Notes under the pieces: model-generated
Told to the model about the DNA's origin: nothing
Database searches by the model: none
The model's input: the letters and a program-made list of their open reading frames with translations, nothing else
From: a virus
Length of the DNA stretch: 20,614 nt
Direction: 5' to 3' (one strand)
UHGV virus genome: UHGV-0225178
Program-made: the position numbers and the translations under genes
Shown here: in pieces, positions 357-19,498 of the stretch
Layout: every line of letters starts with the position of its first letter
Numbering within the stretch: the stretch's first letter is position 1

Positions 357-399
357 ATTTGCCCTCCGCAGGGGCCGGGCCGTAAGCCCGGCTCTCCGT

Positions 400-3122: not shown

Positions 3123-3243
3123 ATTGTCTCCGCATAAAGGATGAATATAAAATAAACAGGCGGTCAGTGTACGCTTAACTGGTAAAGTCGGTGCCTGCCT
3201 CCGGGTGGATCATGTATGCGGGTTCGACCCCCGCCACTGACCG

Positions 3244-4575: not shown

Positions 4576-6157
4576 CCAGCATCCCCTTCATTTCCGCAGC
4601 GAACATGGCATCACTGAGCAGCGTCATCAGGCGGAAATCATCCATTTCACGATAAAGGGCAGGCAGGTCTGCCAGCGCATCCGCCAGCCCCCGCGTTCTG
4701 ATGGCATCAATGACCGGCTCCAGCACCGGATCGATGGCCTCCTGTAAGCGGCGGGCAGGCACCGCATCCCCCATGTCGTCCAGTTCATCACGCGGTGTGC
4801 TTTTCGCTTCCGGTAGTCTGGCAGCCAGCGCCGTCTGTTCTGTCTTTTCCTGTTTTTCCGGTGGCGTTTCCCTGTCAGGCATGGCCGGTTCATTACTGCT
4901 CTGACGGACACGGAATATGGCTTCACCGGGCGTGGGCTGTGGAATACCGGTCTGCTCCCGTACCCAGGGATCAGGAATATCCATCCCCGCACTGAGTTGC
5001 ATCACCGCACTGGTTATTTTGGTGATATCCCCCGGTTCTTTGGTCTGGAAACAGATACGCGGCAGGCGACGGATATCAATGGCTTGGGCGGTGTTCAGGG
5101 CATACAGCGGATACACCAGATCGCGGTTCAGGGTTGCAGCCAGCTGGCGTAAATCAGAATCCCTGATTTCCCGGCGCACCTCGTTATGCACCTCACCCAG
5201 CGAGCGCGCGCCTTTGTCTCCGGCTTCCGTGGTCAGCGTGCCGCCGAGTATTGCTTTGGAGATGGAACGCTCCCCCCACGAAATCATGGTTTCAAACGGA
5301 TCGGCCTGACCGTTCGCTGCCGCCTGAAACTCCAGCGACATCCCGGCCGGGATGATCCCGCCTGTACGTCGCCCGATATCCATCACCGCCCGCATCAGGG
5401 CACTTTTCTGCTCCGGTGTTGCCCCGGACGGGTATTTCCCGACCTTCATCGGCAGGCCGTACACCTCCAGAAATTCCGCCAGATCGCGCACGGAATAGTT
5501 TTTGAAAATGAACGGCCAGATAAGCGTCCGGACAAGCCCGGTTGCACCACCATAGCCGGTGCGTGAACGCGACTGATGCACTATCCAGCCAAATGGCTGA
5601 AACGCCACCCCGGAATGGCTGCCGTCACGCAGCCGCAGTTCGCTCAAATCATCCGGGTTAAGGCAGAAATGCCCGCTGTCACGCCAGCGGATGGCTCGGA
5701 TGATGTGCATTTTACCGAGCATCCCGTGCTCAATTTCCATGCAGGAATAGCCCTTCAGGATGGCATCCGTGGCGTCAAACAGCATGGCATCAAACCAGTC
5801 TGTGGAATGCAGATATTCGTCGAGCATTTCCGCGTCCTTTTTCTCATTCGCGCTGGCGTTCGGTGGCGGCTCAATGCTCCATGGCACCCCCTGAATGGCA
5901 AGACGTCGCTTGCCCAGCTCCGCAAAAAGGTGGGTGTCCTTTTCTTCAATGTCAGCCGCCAGATCGGACTGGGCAATCAGATCGCCACGTTCAGCCCCGC
6001 GAAGGCACTGCGCCGCCCGGTTCGGAGTGATACCCGAGGCCGGATGCTCAATATAACGGCTGGCAATCTGCGGAATATCCAGCGCGGCACTCTGCATCTC
6101 CGGATCAAAGGAGAAAGGTTTTCCGTCAAGATCAATTATGCGTCCCACTACCAGCAC
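4559..6157 (-). CDS. H: Portal protein, Mu gpH (gp29)-like
   Basis: 532-aa ORF immediately downstream of the large terminase with a 10-nt overlap; size and position typical of Mu-type portal. Confidence 0.75.
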   Translation of the reverse strand: MLVVGRIIDLDGKPFSFDPEMQSAALDIPQIASRYIEHPASGITPNRAAQCLRGAERGDLIAQSDLAADIEEKDTHLFAELGKRRLAIQGVPWSIEPPPNASANEKKDAEMLDEYLHSTDWFDAMLFDATDAILKGYSCMEIEHGMLGKMHIIRAIRWRDSGHFCLNPDDLSELRLRDGSHSGVAFQPFGWIVHQSRSRTGYGGATGLVRTLIWPFIFKNYSVRDLAEFLEVYGLPMKVGKYPSGATPEQKSALMRAVMDIGRRTGGIIPAGMSLEFQAAANGQADPFETMISWGERSISKAILGGTLTTEAGDKGARSLGEVHNEVRREIRDSDLRQLAATLNRDLVYPLYALNTAQAIDIRRLPRICFQTKEPGDITKITSAVMQLSAGMDIPDPWVREQTGIPQPTPGEAIFRVRQSSNEPAMPDRETPPEKQEKTEQTALAARLPEAKSTPRDELDDMGDAVPARRLQEAIDPVLEPVIDAIRTRGLADALADLPALYREMDDFRLMTLLSDAMFAAEMKGMLDGSGD

Positions 6158-7827
6158 CCCCGATCAAATTCATGATATGCCTCATCGTCATCACGATAAC
6201 CGCCCTCCATTGCCCGCGACCGTTCCGGCAGCGCCTGACAGGCTGATTCATCCAGGATGAAGCCCTCCATATATGACGCCCGGTTTGCCATACAGAGCGC
6301 CACGGCAAAATCACCATGGCGGCGGGCGTTCGCAGCCGTTGCGTTCTGGTCCTTCGTGCGCCCCTTGTCGATTTGCGGGATACCGTTCACCACCTTCACA
6401 TGGCGCAAATCATCAAGCGTGGTCTGATGGCGGGCGACGAGGATATTCTGATCTTCAAACTCGGCTTTCAGTTTTGGCATCCACTCGCCGTACCACTTCG
6501 GCGACAACATCACGCAGTCGATGATGTCCGGGCCAAAGGCCAGCAGTGCGGCCTCTGCCAGATAGCCGCCGTTACCGGTGGCGTCGAACGCCGCACCGAC
6601 CAGCGCCGGAACGCGGGTCAGGATGTACATCATCACCTGTTCCTGCTGGGCATACGGCAGGTTGCGCAGCTCCACGCGAAACACCTCGCGCTTTGCCAGG
6701 AGTTCGGTGATTTCCAGCAGCACAAAGCAGGACAGGTCACCGGTGCGGGCAAAGTCTTCCCCGAAGCTGAAGCGGGAACGGGGATTTAATTTCTCTGTAA
6801 GCGGTTTTAAATGTTCTTCACACCAGATTAAAACTTCCGATTCACGCAGCCATGCGGCACGGCTGATGAAGTCGTCCGGGGCTTCAAACGTCAGAATCGG
6901 GATGTCACGAATCATCGCCATTTCAATAAGCGCGTGAGGAATATAGGCACCGCCGGATTTTTTCGGGATACAGCCGTATTCCTCGTCGGCGTCCTCACGG
7001 GTCGGGGCGTTTTTGTAGAGATCATCACGCCATTTCTGCTCGCTTTCCGGTGACCATTCCTGATCGGTGACGTAACAGATACGACGGTATAATCCGTCCG
7101 CAATGGCATCATCCAGGGTTATGCGGTGGACGCTGTAATCCTTGCGCCCCTCGCGGGCTTCCTGAATGTACTGATTAAACAGATTATCGACGCCGTTATG
7201 CGTGGAAATAATGCGCACGCGTGCGCCCCACATGGTAAGCGCCATTGCCGCCTTGAGAAGCTCATCCAGTGACTCGTGGAACGCGGCTTCATCAATCACC
7301 ACATCTCCCTGAAGGCCGCGCAGGTTTGACGGACGGGAAGACAATGCCTGAATTTTGAATCCACTGTTCGGAAAGCGGATCATGTAGGTCAGAATTTCTT
7401 CTTTTTTATCCCGATCCCAGAATGTCTGCTCATACACATCAGCATCTGCCAGCTGGTTAAAGGCACGGGAGAACAGCGCGCAGGCAGAAATATATTCCAG
7501 CGCCATCTCCTGCTTTGATCCCACATAAAACACATTGCGGCCACCACGACGCTTCGGTTTTGCAGCAGTAATGACGTTACGCCCGGCTTCCGCCCAGGTA
7601 AGACCGGTGCGGCGGGATTTTTCCGCGATGCAGACCTGACTTTCATCCGCAAACCAGCGGGCCTGATAATCCAGAAACACCGGCATATCACCTGGCAAAT
7701 CAAGGCTGTCCGGCACATCCACGCCCAGCATGGCTTTTTCACCGGACAGATCAATTTTGCGGGGAGGTGAAAGTTTTATCAGCCCCGTATCTGGTTTAAT
7801 TTTTTCTTCGCCTGTTCTTTTACTCAT
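6148..7827 (-). CDS. Terminase large subunit, Mu gp28-like
   Basis: 559-aa ORF between the gp27-like gene and the portal. The ATG at 7827 has no obvious SD, but a strongly SD-driven 9-codon mini-ORF (ATG 7849, stop 7820) overlaps it, which suggests translational coupling. Confidence 0.75.
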   Translation of the reverse strand: MSKRTGEEKIKPDTGLIKLSPPRKIDLSGEKAMLGVDVPDSLDLPGDMPVFLDYQARWFADESQVCIAEKSRRTGLTWAEAGRNVITAAKPKRRGGRNVFYVGSKQEMALEYISACALFSRAFNQLADADVYEQTFWDRDKKEEILTYMIRFPNSGFKIQALSSRPSNLRGLQGDVVIDEAAFHESLDELLKAAMALTMWGARVRIISTHNGVDNLFNQYIQEAREGRKDYSVHRITLDDAIADGLYRRICYVTDQEWSPESEQKWRDDLYKNAPTREDADEEYGCIPKKSGGAYIPHALIEMAMIRDIPILTFEAPDDFISRAAWLRESEVLIWCEEHLKPLTEKLNPRSRFSFGEDFARTGDLSCFVLLEITELLAKREVFRVELRNLPYAQQEQVMMYILTRVPALVGAAFDATGNGGYLAEAALLAFGPDIIDCVMLSPKWYGEWMPKLKAEFEDQNILVARHQTTLDDLRHVKVVNGIPQIDKGRTKDQNATAANARRHGDFAVALCMANRASYMEGFILDESACQALPERSRAMEGGYRDDDEAYHEFDRGCW

Positions 7828-7859
7828 AACTAAACCAGTCTGTTGCCATGATTCACCTC

Positions 7860-8441
7860 CTACGCCTTACCAAGCAGCATCTGCCTGATACGGAATTCTA
7901 TCTGCTCGCTCATGCCATCCACGCCGCGCAGCTCATCGGTGACCGCGTTCGCCATCTCTTCAGCAAATGCGGCCCGGATTTCTTTTTCACGCTTAATGCT
8001 GCGCTCGGCGGCACTTTCCGCACGCTGTGCCGACAGGAGGATGTCCTTAATAAGGCGCATATCCACATCGCTGTCGCTGTTCAGGGATTCGGTGGCAGCA
8101 CGCAGACGGCGGTACATCAGGGCGCGGGACATTTCCAGAATCAGTGCCGTGGTTTCACCAGTTGGCTTGTCCCCCAGTTCGGCCATCATGGCTTTTGTCT
8201 GCTCGCGCAAATCACGCAGGTTACGGGCAATCAGCTCATTACGGGAGGCTTCCCGGCTGATGGCCGCCGGTGAAAGCTGCTGCTCTTCCGGCAGGCCTGC
8301 CTCACGGATCAGACGGTTGATTTCCTCGCGGATCTGGACCTGCGTCAGGCGTTTTTCACGCAGCATTTCCAGCAGCGGCTTACGGATGCTGTCGGGGAGC
8401 AAATCCACCTTGCGTACACGGCCACGCGTTGGCTTATCCAT
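7860..8441 (-). CDS. Mu gp27-like protein (putative small terminase / DNA-binding packaging protein)
   Basis: 193-aa highly charged, helical, Arg/Glu-rich ORF immediately upstream of the large terminase; AAGGGGG SD 5 nt before the ATG at 8441. Confidence 0.55.
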   Translation of the reverse strand: MDKPTRGRVRKVDLLPDSIRKPLLEMLREKRLTQVQIREEINRLIREAGLPEEQQLSPAAISREASRNELIARNLRDLREQTKAMMAELGDKPTGETTALILEMSRALMYRRLRAATESLNSDSDVDMRLIKDILLSAQRAESAAERSIKREKEIRAAFAEEMANAVTDELRGVDGMSEQIEFRIRQMLLGKA

Positions 8442-8443
8442 CG

Positions 8444-8734
8444 TTACCCCCTTGCGCGTGGTTTCTTCACACCCGGAACAGTGGCACGACCTTCCGCCAC
8501 ATCCTGACCCCGGCCGGTCAGTTCAGCGATGAAATAACCGTTAACAAGCGTGCGCTTACGCACTAGTCCCTGCTCGGCAAGCCAGGCAATGTGGGTGTGA
8601 ACGGTGTCGCGGGACACACGGTGGCCGTAATCATCCAGGCAGTCCTGAAGCACGGATTCACCCAGTTCGCCGTTGTAATCCGCCAGCGACCGCAGAATGA
8701 CAAGACGCTGATCTTCAGTAATGAAATCACTCAT
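8444..8734 (-). CDS. Small hypothetical protein at the Mu gp26 position (possible winged-helix)
   Basis: 96-aa ORF, 2-nt gap to the next gene, ATGA overlap with the upstream gene; no recognised catalytic motif. Confidence 0.5.
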   Translation of the reverse strand: MSDFITEDQRLVILRSLADYNGELGESVLQDCLDDYGHRVSRDTVHTHIAWLAEQGLVRKRTLVNGYFIAELTGRGQDVAEGRATVPGVKKPRARG

Positions 8735-9039
8735 TGTGTTTTTTTCCTTACAGCCTGCTCCAGCAGCAGTTCGTTCTGGTGGGAGACGGATTTCAGGGTG
8801 GCATTGGTGGCCTTAAGCTCACCGCGCAGGGTGGTGATTTCGATATTGAGTCTGTTCACCTCCTGCTGCGTGGGCAGGCCGGAAATCCGGCTCTCCACCC
8901 GCTCAACCCGGTCGGAGAGTTTTTCAAAGGCCTCGCGGGGGACAAAGGTTTTGCGCATCAGCGCCATAAAGATCCCCCCGGCCGTGGCCGTGGCCGACAG
9001 GATCGGCACGACATAATCTTTAACGATACTGACCCACAT
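8731..9039 (-). CDS. Single-pass membrane protein with coiled-coil C-terminus, lysis-cassette associated (Mu gp25 position; possible releasin-like lysis regulator)
   Basis: 102 aa; N-terminal hydrophobic segment VVPILSATATAGGIFMALM followed by a charged coiled-coil region; GGAGG SD with 6-nt spacer before the ATG at 9039; lies in the lysis gene block. Confidence 0.5.
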   Translation of the reverse strand: MWVSIVKDYVVPILSATATAGGIFMALMRKTFVPREAFEKLSDRVERVESRISGLPTQQEVNRLNIEITTLRGELKATNATLKSVSHQNELLLEQAVRKKTQ

Positions 9040-9247
9040 GACCGGCCTCCATGATGTTCTGGCAGTTCACACAACGGATGGCATCCGGCACGGCAACCAG
9101 ACGGGCAGCCGGAATGTCACCCCCGCAGTCCGCGCATACACGCCTGCCTGGTGCTTCCACCACCCGGCGCTTACGTGTCAGCCGGTCACAAAGGGCGCGT
9201 TCTGTTGCCCGCTCCATGACTGCCTGAGCACAATCTGAATCATCCAT
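9020..9247 (-). CDS. TraR/DksA-type C4 zinc-finger protein
   Basis: Motif CADCGGDIP...RCVNCQ (two CxxC pairs) near the C-terminus; start placed at the internal ATG 9247 (AAGGA SD upstream) rather than the ORF-track start at 9313, which would overlap the o-spanin. Confidence 0.6.
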   Translation of the reverse strand: MDDSDCAQAVMERATERALCDRLTRKRRVVEAPGRRVCADCGGDIPAARLVAVPDAIRCVNCQNIMEAGHVGQYR

Positions 9248-9257
9248 ACCTTTTTCC

Positions 9258-9629
9258 TTACTTCGTCTTTCCTGCCGGAACAGCAGTCGTTCCGGCCATA
9301 TCAGTAAATTCATGCTGTCGCTGTGCCTCCAGACGGCGGATGCTGGCCTTGTCCACGTTGCAGTTCTTAATCACCGCCAGCAGTTGCAGGTTGTAAGTGA
9401 CCGATGCGCCAAATGTGAACGGCTGCGGCACAGGAGGGACCAGACAGTCAGCCAGCCATTCAGCGGGGATCGGCACCGGCTTCACCGGCACGTATTTCAC
9501 AGACGGCCCGCCGCACCCGGTCAGCCACATCATCAGGCACAGGAACAGAGGCCGCAGGCACCGTTGCCAGCGACCGGCGGACAATGCTCTGCTGTTCCTC
9601 GCTGTGCTGCATGTTCTGCTGTTTTTCAT
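9258..9629 (-). CDS. o-spanin (Rz1-like outer-membrane lipoprotein), overlapped architecture
   Basis: In the +1 frame of the Rz-like gene: lipobox LTGC preceded by hydrophobic LRPLFLCLMMW and followed by Pro-rich PSVKYVPVKPVPIPAEW...PPVPQPF; starts inside the i-spanin gene and ends beyond it. Exact start (ATG 9629 proposed) is uncertain. Confidence 0.5.
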   Translation of the reverse strand: MKNSRTCSTARNSRALSAGRWQRCLRPLFLCLMMWLTGCGGPSVKYVPVKPVPIPAEWLADCLVPPVPQPFTFGASVTYNLQLLAVIKNCNVDKASIRRLEAQRQHEFTDMAGTTAVPAGKTK

Positions 9630-9810
9630 TCGTGGCCGCCTTGCTGATTTGTGAAATGAGTTGCAGGGTGCGTTGCTGGTTTGCCAGCACCAGACGGGCT
9701 TCGTCCCGTTCACGCACAAGCACATGATTATTGTCCTCAAGGCGCTGCGTCTTCTGGTGCATTCCCCATACCACGGCAGCCAGCACGCTCATCACCCCCA
9801 GCGCCGCCAT
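9460..9810 (-). CDS. i-spanin (Rz-like), N-terminal membrane anchor plus coiled-coil periplasmic domain
   Basis: Start chosen at ATG 9810 (GGAGG, 4-nt spacer) giving MAALGVMSVLAAVVWGM... then charged helical sequence; the ORF-track start at 9981 would overlap the endolysin by 58 nt. Confidence 0.55.
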   Translation of the reverse strand: MAALGVMSVLAAVVWGMHQKTQRLEDNNHVLVRERDEARLVLANQQRTLQLISQISKAATNEKQQNMQHSEEQQSIVRRSLATVPAASVPVPDDVADRVRRAVCEIRAGEAGADPR

Positions 9811-9922
9811 ACAGCCTCCGGCAATCAGGCCCGGTAAGGGATTGTTCACCGCAGCCACAGCACACCCCGCAGCAGCACAACGGCACACAGCAGCGCAATC
9901 ATGAGCGGTCGCCAGAAGCGGT

Positions 9923-10423
9923 TCAGACTTTCGGCAAATCGTAACGACATAACCATTCATCCGCCGAACGGCGGGCCTCAAGACCGGGGAGTTTTACCCC
10001 CTTTGAATAAATCCAGCGGATATACTGCTTACAGGACGCGGGCATCTGCCCGGCATTGATAAGGCGCAGGAGCGTGGAGTTGCGAAAGTTCGTTTCACCG
10101 GCCCAGAAAATCCAGGAGGCCAGCGCCACCGTCTGACCACGGGTAAGCGGCACCTGAACATGACGATCGATAGCCGCAAAGGCCCATTTCATGTCCTTTT
10201 CCAGCAGCGCCAGACATTCTTCATCAGTTTTTGTCATCCCCGGTTTCACATCCGGGCCGGTATGGCCGTAACAGATGGTGAGGGTGCCGGTGGGATCAGT
10301 GTACGTGGTGTTTTCTTTCCCTTCCCAGTAGCCGGTGTAGTGCGTGGCAATGGTGAACGTCCCGGCTCCGGCCAGAACAAGGGCAATCAGCTTTTTACGC
10401 AGGGGCGCGGGGAGTTTTGGCAT
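9923..10423 (-). CDS. lys: Endolysin, T4-lysozyme-like (GH24) with N-terminal SAR (signal-anchor-release) domain
   Basis: Catalytic signature E-x8-D-x5-T (EGKENTTYTDPTGTLT) and a weakly hydrophobic Gly/Ala-rich N-terminal segment LIALVLAGAGTFTIA after a basic stretch, typical of SAR endolysins; position downstream of the Mor/C activator as in Mu. Confidence 0.85.
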   Translation of the reverse strand: MPKLPAPLRKKLIALVLAGAGTFTIATHYTGYWEGKENTTYTDPTGTLTICYGHTGPDVKPGMTKTDEECLALLEKDMKWAFAAIDRHVQVPLTRGQTVALASWIFWAGETNFRNSTLLRLINAGQMPASCKQYIRWIYSKGVKLPGLEARRSADEWLCRYDLPKV

Positions 10424-10494
10424 TGTTACGCTGTCTCATGGTGTTCTCTGAGTCAGCGTAACCGTGGAAAAAAGGGGGCAGGATTTGCGGAATA

Positions 10495-10917
10495 TCAGAA
10501 AAGCCGGGGCTGCGTGCGTTCCTGATGCAGGCGACGCTGGTTGCGGATAACGGAGTAAATCTGCGTCTCTGACATCTGGTAGTGGCGGCGCAGGGTTTCA
10601 ATTTTTTCGCCCTGGCTCCAGCGGGAAAAAATTTCATTATTGCGCAGTTCGGTGAAAAGGGATTCACCGACCGGGAGATAATAACCACGCCCGCCCATGT
10701 ACCCGGCCTGTGCAGCCGCAACTTTACGGGCAAGCATTCCCGCCTGAGCAGGTTCAATCCCCTGACGGTGCAGTTCAGCACTGATCACATCAACCAGGTC
10801 CCGCAGCGTGCCGGGCCAGTTTTTTTTCAGCTCATCATCAGGAATGTCATCCAGACGGTCAATCAGCGCGTGCAGCTGTTCGCTGTCACCAAACATGCTC
10901 ATCTGTGTTTCAGCCAT
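10495..10917 (-). CDS. Mor/C-family transcriptional activator of late genes
   Basis: 140 aa; C-terminal region aligns by eye with what I recall of Mu Mor (R-N-IF, W, G, EL-R-Y, IY-IR-RR, P-L); GGAGG SD with 5-nt spacer; directly upstream of the endolysin. Cannot tell Mor from C orthology. Confidence 0.75.
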   Translation of the reverse strand: MAETQMSMFGDSEQLHALIDRLDDIPDDELKKNWPGTLRDLVDVISAELHRQGIEPAQAGMLARKVAAAQAGYMGGRGYYLPVGESLFTELRNNEIFSRWSQGEKIETLRRHYQMSETQIYSVIRNQRRLHQERTQPRLF

Positions 10918-10950
10918 ACCCGCCTCCGGTCATCATTACACAAGGCAAGT

Positions 10951-10984
10951 TTAAAATAAAAATCCCGCGCTGTGGCGGGATTTG
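10951..10984 (-). terminator. Rho-independent terminator between the gemA-position gene and the Mor/C-family activator
   Basis: On the minus strand: stem AAATCCCGC / GCGGGATTT with 6-nt loop, followed by TTATTTT, 3 nt after the stop of the upstream gene. Confidence 0.6.
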
Positions 10985-10987
10985 GGG

Positions 10988-11497
10988 TTAACGGGGGAAT
11001 GATTTTTCATACAGCCTGCAAACGCGCTCATAACTCATCACTGTATGTGCTGGCATCCCCAGTACAGACAGCATTTTGCGGCGGTGCCAGCGTTTGAGAC
11101 GCTCCAGCACATCAGAGGCCATCGCGGGGTGTTGCTCCAGCCACTGCCAGTTAGCCACACCTTCGCCGCCGTTCTGCGCGGCCGTCTGCGATTTCACCCA
11201 GTGGTTAAGGGCTGTTTCCCCGCCATCAGAGATAAAGCCCTGCCGGTGCATCACCTTCCAGATGGCGCGAATTTTGGCGGTCACCGTACCCGGTTTTAAG
11301 GCCCGGTTAACCGGTTTCTGACGCACTTTAAAACCGCGTTTTTTGAAAACATCCAGCACGCGGGATAACTCATCCGGTGACATATCCCGGCAACTGGTTT
11401 TGCCGGTGGCTTCCAGTAGTACGGATGTGTAGATCTCATCATCCAGGGCAAGCTCGCGCTTTGCCACATGAATAGCGGATATCAGTTTCCCTCTCAT
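10988..11497 (-). CDS. Hypothetical early protein at the Mu gemA (gp16) position
   Basis: 169-aa ORF immediately upstream of the Mor/C-family gene, ATGA-coupled to the upstream gene; assignment by synteny only. Confidence 0.45.
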   Translation of the reverse strand: MRGKLISAIHVAKRELALDDEIYTSVLLEATGKTSCRDMSPDELSRVLDVFKKRGFKVRQKPVNRALKPGTVTAKIRAIWKVMHRQGFISDGGETALNHWVKSQTAAQNGGEGVANWQWLEQHPAMASDVLERLKRWHRRKMLSVLGMPAHTVMSYERVCRLYEKSFPR

Positions 11498-11790
11498 GCT
11501 GTATCAACACTCCTGCTGATATGATAGATATTATTTTCCCGATCGAGCTGAACCCGATACTCCGGAGGAATCACAAAAATATTAAAACCATCATCAGTTT
11601 TTATTCTTGAGTAGTATTCCCCCTTATGATATCTGGCAAGTGCATTAATCAGAGAAGTCGTCGCCAGCCCAATCAGGTATTTTTTATGAAAAATACTGAT
11701 AACTTTCCGGCACAGCCATCGTGTAATGACGAATGCACCGAAAAACGATGTGATATATAAACACCAGAACAACTGCGAACTACTGTCCAT
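11494..11790 (-). CDS. Small membrane-anchored protein (single N-terminal TM helix), low-GC insert
   Basis: 98 aa; TM segment LFWCLYITSFFGAFVITRWL followed by basic residues; AAGGAGA SD 7 nt before ATG; markedly AT-rich versus flanking phage genes. Confidence 0.6.
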   Translation of the reverse strand: MDSSSQLFWCLYITSFFGAFVITRWLCRKVISIFHKKYLIGLATTSLINALARYHKGEYYSRIKTDDGFNIFVIPPEYRVQLDRENNIYHISRSVDTA

Positions 11791-11805
11791 TATCTTTCTC
11801 CTTAT

Positions 11806-11940
11806 TCAGTCTTCTGCGGCATTCGGCACAGTCATCAGGGCTTTCAAATGTATCCGGCTCGCGATTATGAGCCAGATATAACCACCGCCTACATATACTG
11901 ATATTATCGCCTGTTTTAAAAAATGATGCTTCTTAGCCAT
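11806..11940 (-). CDS. Possible 44-aa hydrophobic micro-protein in the low-GC insert
   Basis: ORF found by hand translation (MAKKHHFLKQAIISVYVGGGYIWLIIASRIHLKALMTVPNAAED) with a central hydrophobic segment; weak RBS; below the ORF-track length cutoff. Confidence 0.2.
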   Translation of the reverse strand: MAKKHHFLKQAIISVYVGGGYIWLIIASRIHLKALMTVPNAAED

Positions 11941-11968
11941 CAGAGGGCGCGCCCATCCAGCGGGTAGA

Positions 11969-12301
11969 CTATTCATTTACTTTATCCTCCATACTGGACA
12001 GAATCATCTGTATTAATGTCGGGCGTGGAGATATACGCATTTCATTAAGCGTCTGAAGGGCAGCAACAGCTGCCTGTTTATCGGTGCCTTTGGCAATTTC
12101 CGCAAGAGAATGCACAATCCATAACGGACTTAACGCCACGACTGAATCCAGAATCATGTCATCCATAATAATTTCTGGCACATCCAGTTTGTCATACTCC
12201 TTATCCATAAAAGAAACGATTTTTTCCACATCTTCCGGTTTCATGCCTCCGGCGATGAGAATTTTTCTATATTCATAAGACGATCTTAATTCAATACTCA
12301 T
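11969..12301 (-). CDS. Small acidic soluble protein, low-GC insert
   Basis: Start placed at ATG 12301 (AGGAG with 6-nt spacer) instead of the ORF-track start at 12343; Asp/Glu-rich, no TM segment. Confidence 0.55.
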   Translation of the reverse strand: MSIELRSSYEYRKILIAGGMKPEDVEKIVSFMDKEYDKLDVPEIIMDDMILDSVVALSPLWIVHSLAEIAKGTDKQAAVAALQTLNEMRISPRPTLIQMILSSMEDKVNE

Positions 12302-12339
12302 ATTCATCTCCTGTAACGCTGACAAGGACGTAATTTTTC

Positions 12340-12525
12340 TCATTTATGTTTTCCAGTAATACGGATATATATGTCGATAAGAAGATTCATAATAAACAGG
12401 AAGAGCGACATCCTGATAAAGAACCATATATCTGGCATCATGGACAGATTTCCTGTAACCGAAAATATAAAACCAACCACCCCAACTGGAACGATAATTG
12501 CGAAAAGTATAAGTCGCTTTATCAT
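12340..12525 (-). CDS. 61-aa two-TM hydrophobic mini-protein, low-GC insert
   Basis: Two hydrophobic segments (LILFAIIVPVGVVGFIFSV and FFIRMSLFLFIMNLLIDIYI); ATGA stop-start overlaps on both sides. Confidence 0.5.
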   Translation of the reverse strand: MIKRLILFAIIVPVGVVGFIFSVTGNLSMMPDIWFFIRMSLFLFIMNLLIDIYIRITGKHK

Positions 12526-13073
12526 GGCGTTAACTCCCGTAATACAGCGTCCTCGGCGGTCCGGCGACGGTAATAAACTGCGTGAGCAGAATGTTCAGAT
12601 ATTCCAAACTTTTCGCCAATTTCCCGGAATGACAGACGGCGTGGGTAATCGGAATCACGCAGCGCACGTATAAGACGTACATCATCATCAGATATGCGCG
12701 TGCCGGGGCGTAACTCTCCGCACTTTGTTAATCCGGCACCAATCATTCCTGCCCGACATCTGACAGAATCTTTATTACGTCCGAGATATTCTCCCATTTG
12801 CTGGCAGGTCATTGTTCTGGCATTTTTTCGAATAAACTTATCTTCATCAGGTGTAAATCTGGGGTGTTTATATTTCAGTAACTCCGGGTATGAACTGCGC
12901 AATACACCAGTCCGGTTATATACAGCCCAGACAGTTCTTTTTATTCTGGCAGCAATATCCTTAACCGGGGTGGATGAATAAAGCGCAATCAGCAGCGCAT
13001 CTTCTTCAGGTATCCACGGACGGACATGAGCGGGGGCGCGACCTTTTCGTCCCATGGGTTGTAATTTCATCAT
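12522..13073 (-). CDS. Putative DNA-binding protein with three Myb/SANT-like repeats
   Basis: Three repeats of the pattern [W/F/I]-x-P/S-[E/D]-[E/D]-D followed by an HTH-like segment: WIPEEDALLIAL...IAARIKRTVWAVYNR, FTPDEDKFIRK...MGEYLGRNKDSVRCR, ISDDDVRLIRAL...FREIGEKFGISEHSAHAVYYRR. Confidence 0.55.
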   Translation of the reverse strand: MMKLQPMGRKGRAPAHVRPWIPEEDALLIALYSSTPVKDIAARIKRTVWAVYNRTGVLRSSYPELLKYKHPRFTPDEDKFIRKNARTMTCQQMGEYLGRNKDSVRCRAGMIGAGLTKCGELRPGTRISDDDVRLIRALRDSDYPRRLSFREIGEKFGISEHSAHAVYYRRRTAEDAVLRELTP

Positions 13074-13076
13074 GCA

Positions 13077-13592
13077 TCACCCCCTGACTCGCTTTTCAGC
13101 AGCATAAAACTCATCAGACAGAATTTCGGTCATTTTCCGTTTTGCGGAATCATCTTCGCACTGAAGATAAATCACATTGTCAACGCAGAACCAGTTCACG
13201 GGACCATACAATATTGCTGAGAAGTCAATGCCCAGCCAGAACAACAGGGCATCGGTTCTGGCATACGTGACGGGCGAATATTCACGCCACAGAATGTTCA
13301 GTTCATCAGAGGCAACACGCAGGGTTTTAGGGATACGTGATGTGCGCGGCGTGCAGCTCCAGCCATTCGACGCAGTCGGTTTTCTCCATAAGTCGCGATG
13401 AAAAGGATATTTGTCATCCATAAAGCGCAGCCCCTTAAAACAAAATCCACTGATACCGGATACAAATACCGACCGGCACGCAACATTCAGCACGGCCTCA
13501 AGGCGTTTTGCCTCATCCTTAACTTTCTGGCAGTCCTGCTGGTATTTTTGCCACGCAGCCAGCGCGGAAGGGTTTGATGTTTTAAAGAACAT
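13077..13592 (-). CDS. Hypothetical early-region protein
   Basis: 171-aa ORF; 3-nt gap downstream and TAATG overlap upstream indicate the same operon; no recognised motif. Confidence 0.55.
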   Translation of the reverse strand: MFFKTSNPSALAAWQKYQQDCQKVKDEAKRLEAVLNVACRSVFVSGISGFCFKGLRFMDDKYPFHRDLWRKPTASNGWSCTPRTSRIPKTLRVASDELNILWREYSPVTYARTDALLFWLGIDFSAILYGPVNWFCVDNVIYLQCEDDSAKRKMTEILSDEFYAAEKRVRG

Positions 13593-14125
13593 TACGCCAC
13601 CTCCGCAGATATCCCGGCAGGCGCTGCTGTCCGGTCAACAATCAGGTAGCGCAGAACACGCGCGGTGATATTCCAGCCGCTTAAACCGCAGATAATGACA
13701 CCCAGGCGAATGTCGATATACGCCATCACAAACTGGGGTACGCCTTCTTTCATGGCCTGCTCATCAACTTCAGCCACCACATAAACGGTTCCACAGGTCA
13801 GAACGCCCTGAGCAAATTCCCACGCCATCGACGGAATATCATGCCCCTCAATCCACGGCAGGGATTTTCTGAAGCTGCACCACTGAACATCATCAGCCGC
13901 ACATTCCTGGCTGCATTTGCGACGAACCGGCTGCACCGGGCGGGGACGCGGAATATCATAAAAACCGTTACATTCCGTCAGCACGCCTGCATCAACCGCA
14001 TCACGCAGAAAATAAACCATGGAGGATGGCGGCATATTCATTTTTTCAGCCAGTACACCGCAGGTCAGACGTCCGTAAATACTCAGCCAGTTTTTAACCC
14101 CTTCAAGCACTTTTGCATCAATCAT
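13592..14125 (-). CDS. Hypothetical early-region protein with probable N-terminal winged-helix and Cys-containing C-terminal region
   Basis: 177-aa ORF; N-terminal segment resembles an HTH; several Cys residues downstream; coupled to neighbours. Confidence 0.55.
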   Translation of the reverse strand: MIDAKVLEGVKNWLSIYGRLTCGVLAEKMNMPPSSMVYFLRDAVDAGVLTECNGFYDIPRPRPVQPVRRKCSQECAADDVQWCSFRKSLPWIEGHDIPSMAWEFAQGVLTCGTVYVVAEVDEQAMKEGVPQFVMAYIDIRLGVIICGLSGWNITARVLRYLIVDRTAAPAGISAEVA

Positions 14126-14128
14126 GAA

Positions 14129-14671
14129 TTATTCCTCCGTAAGCGCCACATATTCAGAATGTTTAATTTCCTGGCATTCTTCAGGAATACACCCGTTTAT
14201 TTCCCTGCCATAAGCGCCTACTTTAAACACCACACACAGAGCATCACGGGAGAGCGACGGGGTCCACCAGGAGTCCGTGTTAAACATGGAGGGGATTCTC
14301 ATTACCCCCAGCTTTTCACAGAGCCAGACAAGGAAATCAGGATGTTTTCTTAAATCGCGTTCAGCGGCTTCAACCATTGCGGCAATCGCCGGTCCTTCAG
14401 GGCATAACTCATCAGGTCTGGCAATAAAGCACTGTCCGTCCCCGATAAAAGCCACATCATCGCGCTTACGCCAGCCCGCAGGCAGAGCACCGGCAAAATA
14501 AAACTCACTGACTCTGTCCATGGCGAACGGCTTTAAGCGCAATCCGGCAGCGCCTGTATTTTTCAGTAATGCCCGAAGAATACTGTTGCGTAGCGGTAAA
14601 ACAGTCTGTTGATATTTGGTGAAATATTTATTTGTCTGCACACGGTCTAATTTGAAATAAAAATATGCCAT
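14129..14671 (-). CDS. Hypothetical early-region protein
   Basis: 180-aa ORF; AAGGAA SD about 9 nt upstream of the ATG at 14671; first gene after gam. Confidence 0.55.
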   Translation of the reverse strand: MAYFYFKLDRVQTNKYFTKYQQTVLPLRNSILRALLKNTGAAGLRLKPFAMDRVSEFYFAGALPAGWRKRDDVAFIGDGQCFIARPDELCPEGPAIAAMVEAAERDLRKHPDFLVWLCEKLGVMRIPSMFNTDSWWTPSLSRDALCVVFKVGAYGREINGCIPEECQEIKHSEYVALTEE

Positions 14672-14768
14672 ATTTCCGATTCCTTATTTTCAGCTTTCAG
14701 GCGCAAGCAGTCCCCTGACGCGAGCGCCATACTTAAAACGATGTGATATTTAAAGATTTAATGCGGTG

Positions 14769-15299
14769 TTATTTATTCAGTCCGGCGTCCTGTTCAAAAG
14801 GCTCGACATAAAAACTTTCAGCGCCTTTATTCACCTTAATACCGGCAATGCCTTTCACTGCATCCGGCTCCGCCAGGACGGCTTCCTTGTTCACTTCCTC
14901 TTTCGTGCGGATGAATCGCTCAAGCCCCATACGGCGCAGCATTTCAATCACACCTTCCACATCACGGCTGACGCTGCATGATGGCGTTCCCAGCCGCCAT
15001 GACACCGTTCCGGTGGTCAGATTGACTGTTTTGGTTTTGCCGCCGTTCGTCAGCTCATCACGGTTGGTTTTGCACCAGTCCTGAATCCCTTTAAAAAGCA
15101 CTTTGATTTGCTTTTTAAGATTTTCAATCTGCGGCGTATAACGGGCGGTGATTTCAGCCACCTCGTCATTCATTGCCGTTTCCAGGCGCAGCGCCTCTCG
15201 CTGAATATCGCCCAGGGTGCGGATATCACGGCTGACTTCTTCGCGGGTCTGCGGTGCGGCCTCGGCTGCGGCCTTTAATTTTGTAACGCGTTTTGCCAT
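14769..15299 (-). CDS. gam: Host-nuclease inhibitor Gam (Ku-like DNA-end-binding protein)
   Basis: 176 aa; closely matches my recollection of Mu Gam (LETAMNDEVAEITARY, ANRDELTNGGKTKT, FIRTKEEVNKEA, VEPFEQDAG); AAGGA SD upstream. Confidence 0.85.
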   Translation of the reverse strand: MAKRVTKLKAAAEAAPQTREEVSRDIRTLGDIQREALRLETAMNDEVAEITARYTPQIENLKKQIKVLFKGIQDWCKTNRDELTNGGKTKTVNLTTGTVSWRLGTPSCSVSRDVEGVIEMLRRMGLERFIRTKEEVNKEAVLAEPDAVKGIAGIKVNKGAESFYVEPFEQDAGLNK

Positions 15300-15310
15300 T
15301 TTGTTTTTCC

Positions 15311-15604
15311 TTATTGCAATGTATCTGGTGCGTTCTGCAAAGAACGGCGCTCAATGCTGCTTTTCACCCCCATAGCCTGCATGGAACCCTGAAGTTCATC
15401 TGTCAGAAACTGAATAATTGTGGGGCTGTGATATTTAAGAATTTGAGCATAAACATCACAGGGTCCTGTCGGTCTGTTCTCCGTATCACGTTCGATTTTT
15501 ACAGTGGCAGTAACCCCCTCCGTGATTTCCTGACTATCATTACCGGCTGGCTTTACTTCATGCATTACGTGGTTAAATTCAAAAATAACGCGTACTTTGC
15601 TCAT
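15311..15604 (-). CDS. Small hypothetical early protein upstream of gam
   Basis: Start placed at internal ATG 15604 (MSKVRVIFEF...), preceded by GAGGA; the ORF-track start at 15703 would overlap the upstream gene. Confidence 0.5.
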   Translation of the reverse strand: MSKVRVIFEFNHVMHEVKPAGNDSQEITEGVTATVKIERDTENRPTGPCDVYAQILKYHSPTIIQFLTDELQGSMQAMGVKSSIERRSLQNAPDTLQ

Positions 15605-15678
15605 CCTGTTGTCCTCATTTCGTCTTAATAACTCATCCGGCGTCTGACCTGATGACAGAGCCGAACCATGAAGTAACT

Positions 15679-15945
15679 TCATACTTCCCAGTAGACCGTA
15701 CATCCGCTTATGCGGGTGGCTTTTACACGGCGGCGCAGGCCATTGGTCTGAACAGTGATTTCAATTTCACCGGTTCCCTTAACTTCGTTTACCGGCGGCG
15801 TGGTTTTCAGGGCATAACGTTGTGGGTAGCGTTTGCTGCGCTCCAGCACTGCACCGGCAAGTTCAGTCAGACGGCGTGCGCTGTTCAGGGAGTCGAATAA
15901 ATTCATTTTGTTACCGCAGGATTGCATATTCATATAACACCTCAT
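15679..15945 (-). CDS. Small hypothetical early protein (start uncertain)
   Basis: 88-aa ORF with several in-frame candidate ATGs (15945, 15933, 15927, 15906) and no strong SD. Confidence 0.4.
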   Translation of the reverse strand: MRCYMNMQSCGNKMNLFDSLNSARRLTELAGAVLERSKRYPQRYALKTTPPVNEVKGTGEIEITVQTNGLRRRVKATRISGCTVYWEV

Positions 15946-16167
15946 TTAGCTGACTTGTTTTGCACCAACAGAACGGCATATTCCACTGTAAACCTCTGTC
16001 GCACCTTCGCGATCAAGTCCGGCAGATATCACCATTCGCGTGCGGTCATTAAATTCAAAAAGTAAATCGCCACATTCTTTATTTTCGGCCAGTGAAATCA
16101 CTTTCACGATATCGAAATTCACCAGGTAAAAGCGTCCGTAGATATCAGGAATATTAAATGCAGCCAT
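15946..16167 (-). CDS. Small hypothetical protein immediately downstream of B (position of Mu kil)
   Basis: ATG at 16167 preceded by AGGTG (5-nt spacer) and 2 nt after the B stop codon; the ORF-track start at 16173 is a GTG overlapping B. Confidence 0.45.
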   Translation of the reverse strand: MAAFNIPDIYGRFYLVNFDIVKVISLAENKECGDLLFEFNDRTRMVISAGLDREGATEVYSGICRSVGAKQVS

Positions 16168-16169
16168 AA

Positions 16170-17102
16170 TCACACCTGTGAGAGTAATTCAGGGTTGGTA
16201 TAAACCTCTTTAAAGGCCGCATTAATATGTTTTTCTGTCAGCGCGGCACCTTCACCGCTGGCGGTGATCCACGCCTGGTTAAGCGTATGTGTCAGAACGC
16301 GTAAGGCTCCCGGCTTTTCAGCGATAGCCTGCATGACAGCCAGCTCGGCCTCACCACTAATCCCCCATGCCCTGGCAATAGCCAGCACATCCGCCTTTTT
16401 GGCCTTGCGAAGTTGTTTTGTACGGGCAAGACGGCTGAACAGGCGCGATAAATCATCAACGGTGCGGCGTCCACCCTTAAACAGTCCGCGCGGGTTACCA
16501 ATAAGCACCATCCCGATCCCCGTGGCGTCCTGGATTGCACGCAGTTGTTCCAGACCGTCAATACCAAGATGATCCGCCTCATCAACAATCACCAGTCCAC
16601 GAGTTCCCATCAGGCGACGGCGGATGGCGCGGGATAACGCCCCCTTGTTCGCGCGGGTGTAATCAATCCCCAGTTCCTCTGCCAGCTCCAGCATACACTC
16701 CGTGACGCTGGAATGCGCGGGCGACAGGGTGATCATCCAGGTGTTCGGTTGCTCCTGACAGTAATTGCGGGCCGTGGCCGTTTTACCCACACCCGGTACG
16801 CCCACAATGACGTTAATACAGCCCATCAGGCGAACCGCCTGAAACAACGCGCGCAGCTCCTGGACTGTCTGCGTTTCCACAAACTGCGGCGGTTCCGGCA
16901 GTGCGCTTTGTTTATTCCAGTTCTCATACCAGGAACGCAGGGAAGCAGCCACAGCAGCGTTATCGCCTTTATATTTTCCCTTACGGAAAGCCGATAATGT
17001 GCCGTCGGAAATTCCCGCCTCTCTGGCGATGGCATACTGCGTCAGTACGCCGCCATCAATAAGTTCATCAATGGTCTTGATTACATCGTTTATATCGGTC
17101 AT
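16170..17102 (-). CDS. B: DNA transposition protein B (AAA+ ATPase, target DNA activator), MuB-like
   Basis: 310 aa; Walker A GVPGVGKT, Walker B LVIVDEADHL, N-terminal HTH-like region; directly downstream of the transposase. Confidence 0.85.
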   Translation of the reverse strand: MTDINDVIKTIDELIDGGVLTQYAIAREAGISDGTLSAFRKGKYKGDNAAVAASLRSWYENWNKQSALPEPPQFVETQTVQELRALFQAVRLMGCINVIVGVPGVGKTATARNYCQEQPNTWMITLSPAHSSVTECMLELAEELGIDYTRANKGALSRAIRRRLMGTRGLVIVDEADHLGIDGLEQLRAIQDATGIGMVLIGNPRGLFKGGRRTVDDLSRLFSRLARTKQLRKAKKADVLAIARAWGISGEAELAVMQAIAEKPGALRVLTHTLNQAWITASGEGAALTEKHINAAFKEVYTNPELLSQV

Positions 17103-17142
17103 ATTATTACCTCGCGTTTGTGTAGTTCCTTTGTTTAATCAA

Positions 17143-17176
17143 ATAACCTGAGTCGCCGCTCGGGTTATTTTTTTAT
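17143..17176 (+). terminator. Terminator-like hairpin in the A-B intergenic region, canonical on the plus strand (antisense to the operon)
   Basis: 10-bp stem ATAACCTGAG / CTCGGGTTAT (one G-U), 6-nt loop, followed by a T run on the plus strand; on the minus (mRNA) strand it is followed only by UUGAUU. Confidence 0.45.
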
Positions 17177-17177
17177 T

Positions 17178-19265
17178 TCAGGCCAGAGGGTCATTTTCTT
17201 TTAATTTCGCTTCAAGCAGCTGCAATCCCCGCTGGAAATTACGCTCGTATTCTTCATCAGGTTCATCCTCAGCGACCGGTTGCTGAACGGTCACTGTATT
17301 ACCCACAGGGCGGTATATATTTTCCAGCCATGGCTCCTGTGGCTTGTGCTCCAGCACGTTGACAACCTCATCCTCGGCATCACGGATTTTTTCCTCTGCG
17401 CGTTTACGCATACCTTTAAGGCGCTGCTGCTGTTTGTAGTATTCCGCGCTGACCGGGAAGGCTTCGCGTTTATTGCCGTCCCATACCGCCTCGCAAATCA
17501 CGCTGCCATCCGGGCGACGCACGGTAATTCGTTCGGCATCATGAATGTCATAGCTGATAAGCACTTTGCGGCCATGTTCATCACGCAGCTCGGGCGCGTA
17601 GTAAATATTATTCAGCCAGCGTATTTCACAGCGTCTTACAGGGCGTTCCACCATCGGCCGGAACATGTCCCGCAGTTCAACATCGGACAGCCATTCAATT
17701 TCCGTGTCCTCTTCCGCCAGGCGTTTTTTTCTGAACTCCGCCGGGCTGTAATGTTTGCCGTTCGGCTTCATGGGTAATTCATCGTGCGGCCGGCTGTTGT
17801 ACCACTCAACGCCGTCACGAATGGCATCAATCAGTTCAGACCAGGACGGTAAATCACGCATCGCTGACTGCTGCCGGGCGTTCAGCCGCTTGCCCTGTTG
17901 CAGGGCAGTGAATGCCGAGCGTAAATCGCGGTTGGTTTTACGTAACGTCTCGCGATCTGCACCTTTCCCGAAATAGGTGCGGTATTTACGGGCTATGCGC
18001 ATCGGTAATGTGCGGTTAAGCCGTTCGATAATGCCCCGTCCCTGCGGGTTACCGGCAATCCCGGTCGGGTGATTAATCCCCAGTCGCGGCAGTATCCCCA
18101 CAATCTCCTTATCCAGGACGTCGGCGGTTTCCCCCGAGCCATTATCCGAGTAATACAGAAACGGTTTGCCGTGATGTCGAATACCGTGCTGTATGGCACC
18201 GGCTACGGCGAAAACATTTTCAGCCAGGTCAAGGCTCCAGCCCACCACAAAGCGCGTGCCGCCGTCGATAACAAAGGTCACTTCCGGTGCAAATGGCCGC
18301 CCGTGAACCGGGTGTGCGCATTTCAGCTTCATGCCGTGACCGTCACCAATCCAGACATAATTCACCGGCATTTTTGACCAGTCGCGGCGAGTGAACCCCT
18401 CAAGCTGGCGGTATTCACTGCCGGTAACCCGGCCTTTTTGTTTCACCACTTCCGGCAGTTTCTTCATTGCGCGGCGAATGGTGTCATAAGAGGGCATGAT
18501 ATCGAGCATATAAGGCTCATCAGCGTGCCGGTGCTGCCATTCAGCGACAAAATCCTCGTAAGCCTCGGTCATTGGTCGGCCGTTTGACTGGCGATACTGC
18601 GCCAGAAACTCGGGCAGCCAGTTAATATCTTCGGCTTTTATTTCCTGACGTTTACCCGGTGCCAGTAAAAGCAGGCGTTCAGCGGCGTTCTGCGCCTTGT
18701 TAAAGGCCGCAATCCAGCGTTTCAGCGTGATTTCACTCAACGCGCGGCTGTTTCCCTTTTTGGCGTTCGCCGTCTCAACCATTGCCACAATGCGCTCGTC
18801 CAGTTGTGATCGTGCCAGGCTGTTAACGAGGAACCGGATAGCCTTAGCGCAACTAAAGCCGGGTTGTTGCGCGATTTTCAGCGCCTCGCTGACGATCGCT
18901 ATTCGTGCCTCTGCCACTTTACGTTGGTTTTCAGTCAGGGCATTGAGGCGTTCGACCATCAGTTGGGGTGATCCGCGATATGCCTCCACCGCATCAACCA
19001 CGGCAGGTGAGCGTCTGGCCTTTGTCACCACCGGAGCCGGTGATTCATCGGCTTTTTGCGTCATCAGTTGCAGGGCGTAGCGTTCACGTAATGCCTGCTG
19101 CGTCACTTCAGGTAAACAGTCGATGCTGTATTCAAAACCTTTAGTGCCTTCCTGGCGGCGTCTGCTGGTTTCGCTGGTTGCATACTTCCTGATTGAATAG
19201 CGGACGCCTTGCTCCGTTCCCGGCATTCCCGGTAATCCAACCAGCTCTTTAACTGAAGCAAACAT
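17178..19265 (-). CDS. A: DDE transposase, MuA-like
   Basis: 695 aa; the N-terminus (VKELVGLPGMPGTEQGVRYSIRKYA...GTKGFEYSIDCLPEVTQQAL) resembles the MuA enhancer-binding winged-helix domain as I recall it; size and position between ner and B. Confidence 0.85.
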   Translation of the reverse strand: MFASVKELVGLPGMPGTEQGVRYSIRKYATSETSRRRQEGTKGFEYSIDCLPEVTQQALRERYALQLMTQKADESPAPVVTKARRSPAVVDAVEAYRGSPQLMVERLNALTENQRKVAEARIAIVSEALKIAQQPGFSCAKAIRFLVNSLARSQLDERIVAMVETANAKKGNSRALSEITLKRWIAAFNKAQNAAERLLLLAPGKRQEIKAEDINWLPEFLAQYRQSNGRPMTEAYEDFVAEWQHRHADEPYMLDIMPSYDTIRRAMKKLPEVVKQKGRVTGSEYRQLEGFTRRDWSKMPVNYVWIGDGHGMKLKCAHPVHGRPFAPEVTFVIDGGTRFVVGWSLDLAENVFAVAGAIQHGIRHHGKPFLYYSDNGSGETADVLDKEIVGILPRLGINHPTGIAGNPQGRGIIERLNRTLPMRIARKYRTYFGKGADRETLRKTNRDLRSAFTALQQGKRLNARQQSAMRDLPSWSELIDAIRDGVEWYNSRPHDELPMKPNGKHYSPAEFRKKRLAEEDTEIEWLSDVELRDMFRPMVERPVRRCEIRWLNNIYYAPELRDEHGRKVLISYDIHDAERITVRRPDGSVICEAVWDGNKREAFPVSAEYYKQQQRLKGMRKRAEEKIRDAEDEVVNVLEHKPQEPWLENIYRPVGNTVTVQQPVAEDEPDEEYERNFQRGLQLLEAKLKENDPLA

Positions 19266-19267
19266 AA

Positions 19268-19498
19268 TTACGCGACCTTACGAATGTAGCGGCTGGGCCA
19301 AATCTCCTCGGGTGGCACACCCAGGCATTCCGCAATAATCCCCTCATACTTGGGAACATGACGGTATACCGCGTTGTACAGGTTGTTCTGACCTACACCA
19401 GCTTTACGTGCCAGCGCCCTCATACTTCCTTCTCTGGCTCTGACTTCCCCCAAGATTCTTTGAGGATGCCAATCAGGCTTAACTTCATTTCTCGCCAT
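19268..19498 (-). CDS. ner: Ner-like DNA-binding early regulator (Ner/Nlp family)
   Basis: 76 aa; WHP-ILGEV, LS-RALARKAG, NNLYNAVYRHVPKYEGIIAE, EEIWPSRY pattern resembles Mu Ner; first gene of the leftward early operon, divergent from the repressor. Confidence 0.75.
   Translation of the reverse strand: MARNEVKPDWHPQRILGEVRAREGSMRALARKAGVGQNNLYNAVYRHVPKYEGIIAECLGVPPEEIWPSRYIRKVA

Follow-up and report, generated by a model that had tools for sequence, protein, structure and literature searches.

Bacteriophage Mu carries, in the semi-essential region of its early operon, a slot of small genes of unknown function (gp13-gp15) that lies between gp12 and gemA, is followed by GemA and Mor, and has a guanine-plus-cytosine (GC) content of 0.455-0.475 against 0.53-0.55 in its flanks. 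A variable part of the early region that holds small, AT-rich, lineage-restricted genes is a familiar feature of phages. Superinfection exclusion has been shown for gene 10 of the transposable Pseudomonas phage Fc02, which directly follows ner in that phage's lytic operon (PMC9936078). Here we describe a block of four small genes that takes the same place as the Mu slot in a collinear early operon, at positions 11494-12525 (minus strand) of UHGV virus genome UHGV-0225178. The whole stretch analyzed, 20,614 nucleotides (nt) long, is called the window below.

The window is the Mu-like prophage of Escherichia coli CI5 (NZ_CP011018.1), to which its region 11300-12700 is 99.9% identical. Our analysis shows the block to be the variable end that Mu-like early operons normally have, and not a foreign defense island. 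The fuller reading that we favor, and consider probable, is that an Sp18-type Mu-like prophage has here, at the end of its early lytic operon farthest from the promoter, a hypervariable slot for accessory genes; this reading takes in the expression, dispensability, and mechanism proposed below. Existing annotations list the products of the block as hypothetical proteins, and PHROG families already include them (phrog_17269, phrog_1988, phrog_2358, and, weakly, phrog_19804), the function of each being unknown.

In the RefSeq annotation, the CI5 prophage sits within xdhA and all its phage genes are on the minus strand, except for an open reading frame (ORF) on the repressor side. Along the direction of transcription, genes for a ner-like helix-turn-helix (HTH) protein, the Mu transposase, a MuB-like AAA ATPase, small proteins, and Gam are followed by three conserved genes, a gene for a DNA-binding protein of 183 amino acids (aa), four small genes, and the genes for a gp16-family protein (GemA), Mor, lysozyme, and the head. 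The window's 177-aa protein is 67% identical to Mu gp11 and its 171-aa protein 52% identical to Mu gp12, and Gp11_C, GemA, and Mor are among the Pfam matches of the early proteins. The annotated order and the Pfam matches place the slot between the transposition/gam genes and gemA/mor, on the strand of the early operon. Its left border, on the upstream side, is the gene of the 183-aa Myb/HTH-repeat DNA-binding protein (12522..13073, minus strand; phrog_323, E = 1.2e-51, with weak Pfam HTH matches), which is kept in every variant examined. Its right border, on the downstream side, is GemA of the Mu gp16 family (10988..11497, minus strand; Pfam GemA, E = 5e-30), and the annotation of each relative examined likewise gives a gp16 family protein here.

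The prophage type is present in 232 of the 5,426 complete E. coli genomes, O157 strains included, and at least six gene arrangements were found between the conserved HTH gene and GemA. Read from the former to the latter, variant A (CI5, STEC299, and KS 470-1) encodes proteins of 61, 110, 65, and 98 aa; variant B (SJ7), proteins of 103, 116, 110, 65, and 98 aa; and variant C (M18), proteins of 109, 122, and 98 aa. Variant D (JE86-ST02) encodes proteins of 109, 116, and 102 aa (acidic family) and a reverse-strand DUF2513 protein; variant E (JNEC-KY203), proteins of 103 and 103 aa (98-aa family); and variant F (PO06021 and SCU-106), proteins of 110 aa (103-aa family) and 95 aa (Mu gp14 family) and a reverse-strand protein of 79 aa. 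A preliminary description of this DNA had placed the block in a variable early region, and the comparison with related Mu-like prophages bears this out: the slot is a cassette mosaic. Among the ~232 genomes, the 61-aa gene was found in 109, the acidic 110-aa gene in 214, and the 98-aa family in 216. Three genes (110-aa, 65-aa, and 98-aa) are near-core; the 61-aa gene, one of two alternatives, is swappable.

In several variants, a gene on the reverse strand lies immediately upstream of GemA, namely gp15 in Mu, the DUF2513 gene in L015, a similar 138-aa gene in L020, and the 79-aa gene in L017 and L018. Their expression could be independent of the early operon; the slot of the window has no such gene.

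The block genes are real and under purifying selection. The ratio of nonsynonymous to synonymous substitution rates (dN/dS) was 0.1-0.5 in pairs with enough substitutions, near-identical pairs giving noisy values. Word-indexed homolog searches with the three intact proteins returned E. coli and Shigella relatives only.

The block is joined to the early operon on both sides. At 11494-11497 and again at 12522-12525, the plus strand reads TCAT (minus strand, ATGA), so that the stop of the HTH gene overlaps the ATG of the 61-aa gene and the stop of the 98-aa gene overlaps the start of GemA, as the preliminary description had stated. The stop/start overlaps that join the genes measure 4-11 nt (8 and 11 nt inside the block), and the sole spacer between block genes, between the 61-aa and 110-aa genes, is 38 nt. 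Each block gene has its own Shine-Dalgarno sequence 6-9 nt 5' of the start: GGGAG at 9 nt for the 61-aa gene, AGGAG at 6 nt for the 110-aa gene, GGAGG at 9 nt for the 65-aa gene, and AAGGAG at 7 nt for the 98-aa gene.

The base composition of the block is atypical, and the greater AT-richness that had been read from the letters was upheld by windowed GC and by codon usage. The GC content of 11494-12525 is 0.401, compared to 0.566 in the late genes (1-10987) and 0.512 in the rest of the early region (12526-19498), and position 11494 is the exact start of the lowest-GC 1,032-bp segment of the prophage, 2.8 standard deviations below the mean of all such segments. At synonymous sites, GC at third codon positions (GC3) is 0.39-0.40 in the three intact block genes vs 0.58-0.68 in the genes for the transposase, B, terminase, portal, and lysozyme; the bias is therefore not purely an effect of amino acid composition or hydrophobicity. 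The edge is sharp at GemA (GC 0.545) and graded on the upstream side, where the HTH gene has a GC3 of 0.39. A dip is also seen at the same position in Mu and SfMu (0.44-0.48 vs 0.53-0.55 in the flanks), shallower than in the window.

The low GC had been taken as the sign of a single, separately acquired cargo module, a view that our results do not support. Neither flanking repeats nor mobility marks of the block turned up in a repeat search, and nearly every prophage of this type has the acidic gene and a member of the 98-aa family. The lack of flanking repeats, the dip shared with Mu and SfMu, and the distant, syntenic homologs of the acidic protein near GemA (described below) argue against one recent insertion and favor a long-term exchange of small genes in this place.

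One of the block products is the 110-aa all-helical, mildly acidic soluble protein (11969..12301, minus strand), a member of phrog_1988 and a homolog of SfMu gp14. Its open frame extends upstream to 12343 (124 aa), but the start at 12301 is most likely the true one because AGGAG lies 6 nt upstream, because the Prokaryotic Genome Annotation Pipeline (PGAP) chose it, and because the phrog_1988 alignment begins at residue 15 of the 124-aa ORF. The preliminary description had spoken of an Asp/Glu-rich soluble protein. It is indeed soluble and acidic, but only mildly so, with an isoelectric point (pI) of 4.67 and a net charge of -7 (-2 to -8 in homologs). An AlphaFold2 model gave six helices, with a mean predicted local distance difference test (pLDDT) score of 66.6, and the dN/dS of the gene was 0.12-0.46.

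The acidic family, though tiny, is old. A HMMER profile search run in full against 1.84 billion representative proteins yielded only 9 clusters at E<=1e-3. The window protein is 36% identical to SfMu gp14 over 92 residues. Most members with a readable context belong to Mu-like early regions, and homologs at 27-36% identity stand 0-2 genes upstream of GemA in SfMu, L008, L011, and L019-L021; the family keeps invariant motifs down to 27% identity in these distant Mu-like phages. One exception in context is a 2.5-kb metagenome contig (L010), in which the acidic-family gene adjoins a holin gene with no Mu genes in view. A PDB sequence search with the family profile returned nothing under E = 0.2, and the model had no significant PDB or viral fold match. 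NCBI names the relative P0012 a HEAT-repeat protein, and no HEAT-repeat model or fold match was found. We also considered the family as a diverged paralog of the Mu gp14 family, which was rejected (hhalign probability 0.3%, E = 0.23). In a 211-aa protein from the representative search (P0024), the N-terminal motif of the family, YRKxLIxxGLxPxDxDRI, occurs in three tandem copies behind a hydrophobic N-terminus that resembles a signal peptide; the motif may be an independent short helical unit.

The neighbor of the helical gene changes between phages. A zinc-finger-like protein precedes it in SfMu-type phages, instead of a membrane protein. In L008 (4778-5360), a 77-aa protein with two transmembrane (TM) segments directly precedes and overlaps the acidic homolog (27-31% identity), echoing the 61-aa/110-aa order. 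A kinship of the 61-aa protein with this 77-aa protein was rejected, the two giving no alignment and no sequence similarity. With neighbors that vary in this way, an obligate pair of a membrane and an acidic protein is unsupported.

The properties of the 110-aa protein bear on one rival explanation, in which the block is an early anti-defense module: shortly after infection or induction, its acidic helical protein would inhibit a host restriction or other immune system, for instance by mimicking DNA. The early-operon position would suit such a role, as would the low pI, the lineage restriction and fast evolution of a family of so few clusters, and the variability of the slot, which is usual for counter-defense genes. 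However, DNA mimics such as Ocr are far more acidic than this protein. Net charges of -2 to -8 across the family show that acidity is not a conserved strong feature, which weakens the DNA-mimic idea, and we found neither the strong acidity of the Ocr/ArdA type nor, in the libraries searched, sequence or fold similarity to known mimics. The protein also has no significant Pfam, NCBIfam, or PDB sequence match. We therefore regard an anti-defense module as unlikely.

Two of the other products are predicted membrane proteins. The 61-aa protein (12340..12525, minus strand) is predicted to be an inner-membrane hairpin: mean hydropathy is 1.8-2.8 across two 19-residue windows, in agreement with the two-TM mini-protein described earlier. 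Its basic ends (MIKR... and ...RITGKHK) suggest an N-in/C-in topology with a short periplasmic loop. Homologs were found in E. coli and Shigella only, always in the identical context, and the dN/dS was ~0.45. The only family match, phrog_19804, is weak and of unknown function. Matches to Pfam SHR3 and NCBIfam MrpD were set aside, as they lie far below the cut-off and reflect hydrophobic composition.

The 98-aa protein (11494..11790, minus strand; phrog_17269, E = 4.9e-66) agrees with its first description as a single-TM protein: a 17-residue hydrophobic stretch (residues 7-23) forms a predicted N-terminal membrane anchor and is invariant in relatives, as are the N-terminal 30 residues as a whole. 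The C-terminal part comes in two alleles that are ~50% identical, with a synonymous divergence (dS) of ~2, and these alleles are old. The family is found in the 216 genomes given above, and the allele of the window covers >=80% of the query in 63. The AlphaFold2 model shows one long helix (3-54) and four strands (pLDDT 66.9), predicting a small beta domain for the C-terminal part, which the basic cluster RWLCRK after the anchor would place in the cytoplasm. The model had no significant PDB match.

Searches for function gave little. Nothing significant was found for the block proteins in Pfam or NCBIfam, the latter giving far-sub-threshold chance matches only. PADLOC, whose families cover Abi and toxin-antitoxin types among others, had no match at E<=0.1 for the eight proteins scanned, the three intact block proteins included, and profile and AlphaFold-model fold checks likewise gave no significant PDB or fold match. 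In the literature on Mu early genes, SfMu, Sp18, and anti-defense, we found no functional data on the block genes. The preliminary description had proposed a module of small membrane proteins with an acidic partner serving superinfection exclusion, abortive infection, toxin-immunity, or anti-restriction. Its two membrane proteins, as predictions, and its variable slot hold up; the proposed functions have no homology support in the PADLOC, Pfam, NCBIfam, PDB, and fold searches. The location of the block inside a repressor-controlled early lytic operon argues against functions expressed in the lysogen, although not against exclusion during lytic growth.

Signals for separate expression were sought by consensus scans. 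Promoter-like sites in 10400-13200 numbered 5, compared to 4.7 expected from shuffled sequences, and terminator-like sites were also no commoner than in shuffles. The scan found no promoter-like site ahead of the 61-aa gene, the first in the block, and no terminator before GemA; by this consensus scan, the block lacks the promoter and terminator of its own that would bracket a moron. The first terminator-like hairpin lies after GemA, at 10983-10960 on the minus strand. This hairpin, at 10960-10983, consists of a 9-bp GC-rich stem followed by a T-run and stands in the 70-nt spacer between GemA and Mor. The sole Mor/C-family gene of the prophage lies at 10495-10917. Mu differs in that its gemA and mor genes overlap and that it has a pair of activators, Mor and C; the prophage type described here may end its early transcript before its single late activator.

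These results speak to a second rival, a defense moron expressed by the prophage from its own promoter in the lysogen, with superinfection exclusion, abortive infection, or a toxin-immunity pair of membrane and soluble proteins as its function. Such a moron would account for the atypically low GC (0.401 vs 0.51-0.57), for two small membrane products, and for a slot that varies among close relatives, and the reverse-strand genes of some variants (DUF2513, 79-aa, and Mu gp15) are possibly independent of the early operon. The block genes, however, are co-oriented with the repressed early operon and tightly packed into it by stop/start overlaps, with no promoter-like site before the first of them and no bracketing terminator. 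None of the proteins is matched by PADLOC, and the acidic gene and 98-aa family are not sporadic but near-universal in the prophage type. A defense moron thus appears rather improbable.

The preliminary description had seen a 178-bp gap (11791-11968) with a possible internal promoter, and also a possible 44-aa hydrophobic micro-protein, where our analysis found a broken gene and no promoter-like site. The region is coding: 11780..11976 (minus strand) is a frameshifted copy of the gene for a 65-aa hydrophilic, Cys/His-containing protein, and PGAP annotates it as a pseudogene. The gene is intact (198 bp) at the same place in STEC299, KS 470-1, and SJ7, and the intact protein matches phrog_2358 (E = 2.6e-33). 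Its dN/dS of 0-0.11 in relatives shows that the gene is constrained. The supposed micro-protein corresponds to M13 onward of the 56-aa frameshift product, and its hydrophobic tail is out-of-frame sequence.

Alignment placed the frameshift in a single-base deletion at 11918..11923 (minus strand), where the coding strand has T6 (plus-strand A6) and the relatives have T7. A 60-nt probe showed the deletion in CI5 alone among 38 E. coli records, so the missing base may be an error in sequencing the homopolymer, or the gene may have been inactivated recently, or the frameshift may be leaky. The mutant site reads CAT CAT TTT TTA and so contains an in-frame T_TTT_TTA heptamer, and a simulated -1 slip at this heptamer restores the 65-aa product with one F-to-L change. 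In variant C, the 122-aa protein of M18 (L014, 1116-1484) ends in ...VTVPSAAED, a near-match to the ...MTVPNAAED of the frameshift tail in the window (11806-11830). It seems that a deletion in M18 joined the gene of the 116-aa family, in the alternative frame, to the region where the 65-aa gene ends.

A broken gene raises a third rival, that the block is decaying or non-functional filler whose low GC stems from relaxed selection and AT-biased drift, with the frameshift as a symptom. One of the four genes is indeed frameshifted in CI5, the region is fragmented in L022, and a function is known for none of the four. Against this, dN/dS in informative pairs lies between 0.1 and 0.5 for all four genes and is lower still in relatives for the 65-aa gene, intact reading frames occur in >100 to >200 genomes, each gene has a strong Shine-Dalgarno sequence, the acidic family has kept its invariant motifs in distant phages, and the frameshift was seen in CI5 only. 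We consider filler very unlikely. Least probable of all is the proposal that lysis timing is regulated by the 61-aa protein, as a holin, pinholin, or antiholin-like protein partnered by the 98-aa protein, which would assign the block to lysis control and not to host modulation. The hydropathy and charge distribution of the 61-aa protein would fit the two-TM hairpin architecture of class II holins, basic C-terminal tail included, and an acidic-family gene adjoins a holin gene in the distant contig L010. Against this, the 61-aa gene lies ~1.9 kb upstream of the lysozyme and Rz/Rz1-like genes, with GemA, the terminator-like hairpin, and Mor in between, its product matches no PHROG or Pfam holin family, and about half of otherwise similar prophages lack it yet keep the lysis cassette.

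For the accessory-gene slot that we favor, we propose the following course. The repressor-controlled early promoter most likely drives the block genes along with A, B, and gam, on infection or induction only, and their translation is most likely coupled. By analogy with the semi-essential early region of Mu, they would be dispensable for the basic lytic cycle; the absence of the 61-aa gene from about half of the related prophages and the break in the 65-aa gene of CI5 bear on this point. The low GC would stem from recombination at gene borders, through which Mu-like phages exchange such small genes, and not from one recent insertion. With low confidence, we suggest that the 61-aa and 98-aa proteins might insert into the inner membrane early in lytic growth and change a property of the envelope, for instance by excluding superinfecting phage DNA or by tuning the membrane or division state. 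The helical 110-aa protein, with equally low confidence, might bind a protein of the host or of the phage and so serve as a small adaptor.

Several points weigh against this proposal. Co-transcription of the block genes from the early promoter is deduced from gene layout, and the consensus promoter scan is crude, so that a weak or non-sigma-70 internal promoter could escape it. Membrane topologies were assigned from hydropathy and the positive-inside rule rather than by a dedicated predictor. The functional part finds no significant homology to any characterized protein in the libraries searched, and the fold searches are uninformative because the AlphaFold2 models are of low confidence (pLDDT ~67). 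The pairing of membrane and helical proteins is inconstant, since SfMu-type phages have the zinc-finger-like protein in this place and SJ7 has two soluble proteins replacing the 61-aa gene.

A bolder version would make phrog_1988 a new early host-takeover or counter-defense factor, adapted to different hosts by small partners that vary with the lineage, and would have the 61-aa and 98-aa membrane proteins form a device for exclusion in the lytic phase that has no relation to those known; we consider this doubtful. If a host-modulating or counter-defense role were true, the toolkit of transposable phages would gain new families of small proteins from the block, and transposable phages of this kind are common in pathogenic E. 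coli. The present value of the analysis is mainly corrective: the supposed promoter gap is a broken gene, and the comparison of cassettes separates near-core from swappable genes and so guides where experiments should start.

Two further observations concern the CI5 record. RefSeq shows a 'tRNA-OTHER' feature at about 3163-3242 (plus strand) of the window, between the virion-morphogenesis and head-morphogenesis genes; ARAGORN, and Rfam at its gathering threshold, found no RNA gene anywhere in the window. Parts of the block match two places in the record, which suggests that CI5 may carry a second related Mu-like element.

Set beside known systems, the 61-aa and 98-aa proteins recall the Imm-type exclusion proteins of T4, small inner-membrane proteins produced early in lytic infection. 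The likeness is one of architecture and timing only (the timing being taken from gene layout), with no homology in the libraries searched. D3112 Tip and DMS3 Aqs1, early-operon superinfection-exclusion genes of transposable Pseudomonas phages like Fc02 gene 10, offer a parallel from Mu-like phages. Like the window genes, these three encode small accessory proteins of early or lytic operons, and theirs alter host surface or physiology. Unlike the window genes, they adjoin ner at the start of the operon and not gemA, and no similarity was found, no direct comparison having been made.

Mu and SfMu are closer. The Mu slot differs from that of the window in carrying the zinc-finger-like gp13, gp14, and the reverse-strand gp15, and none of the four window genes has a Mu homolog; the window differs from Mu in its extra Myb/HTH gene ahead of the slot and in its deeper GC dip (0.40 vs 0.55). 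In SfMu, gp14 stands between a Cys-rich 60-aa protein and a Mu gp14-like protein, which, unlike the neighbors in the window, are not membrane proteins; gp14 has no reported function and goes undiscussed in the SfMu paper. SfMu gp14 is nevertheless, with its phrog_1988 relatives in the Yersinia Mu-like phages vB_YpM_5 and vB_YpM_6, a true homolog of the 110-aa protein and of the same length class, and its gene, like that in the window, lies upstream of gemA, with SfMu gp15 in between.

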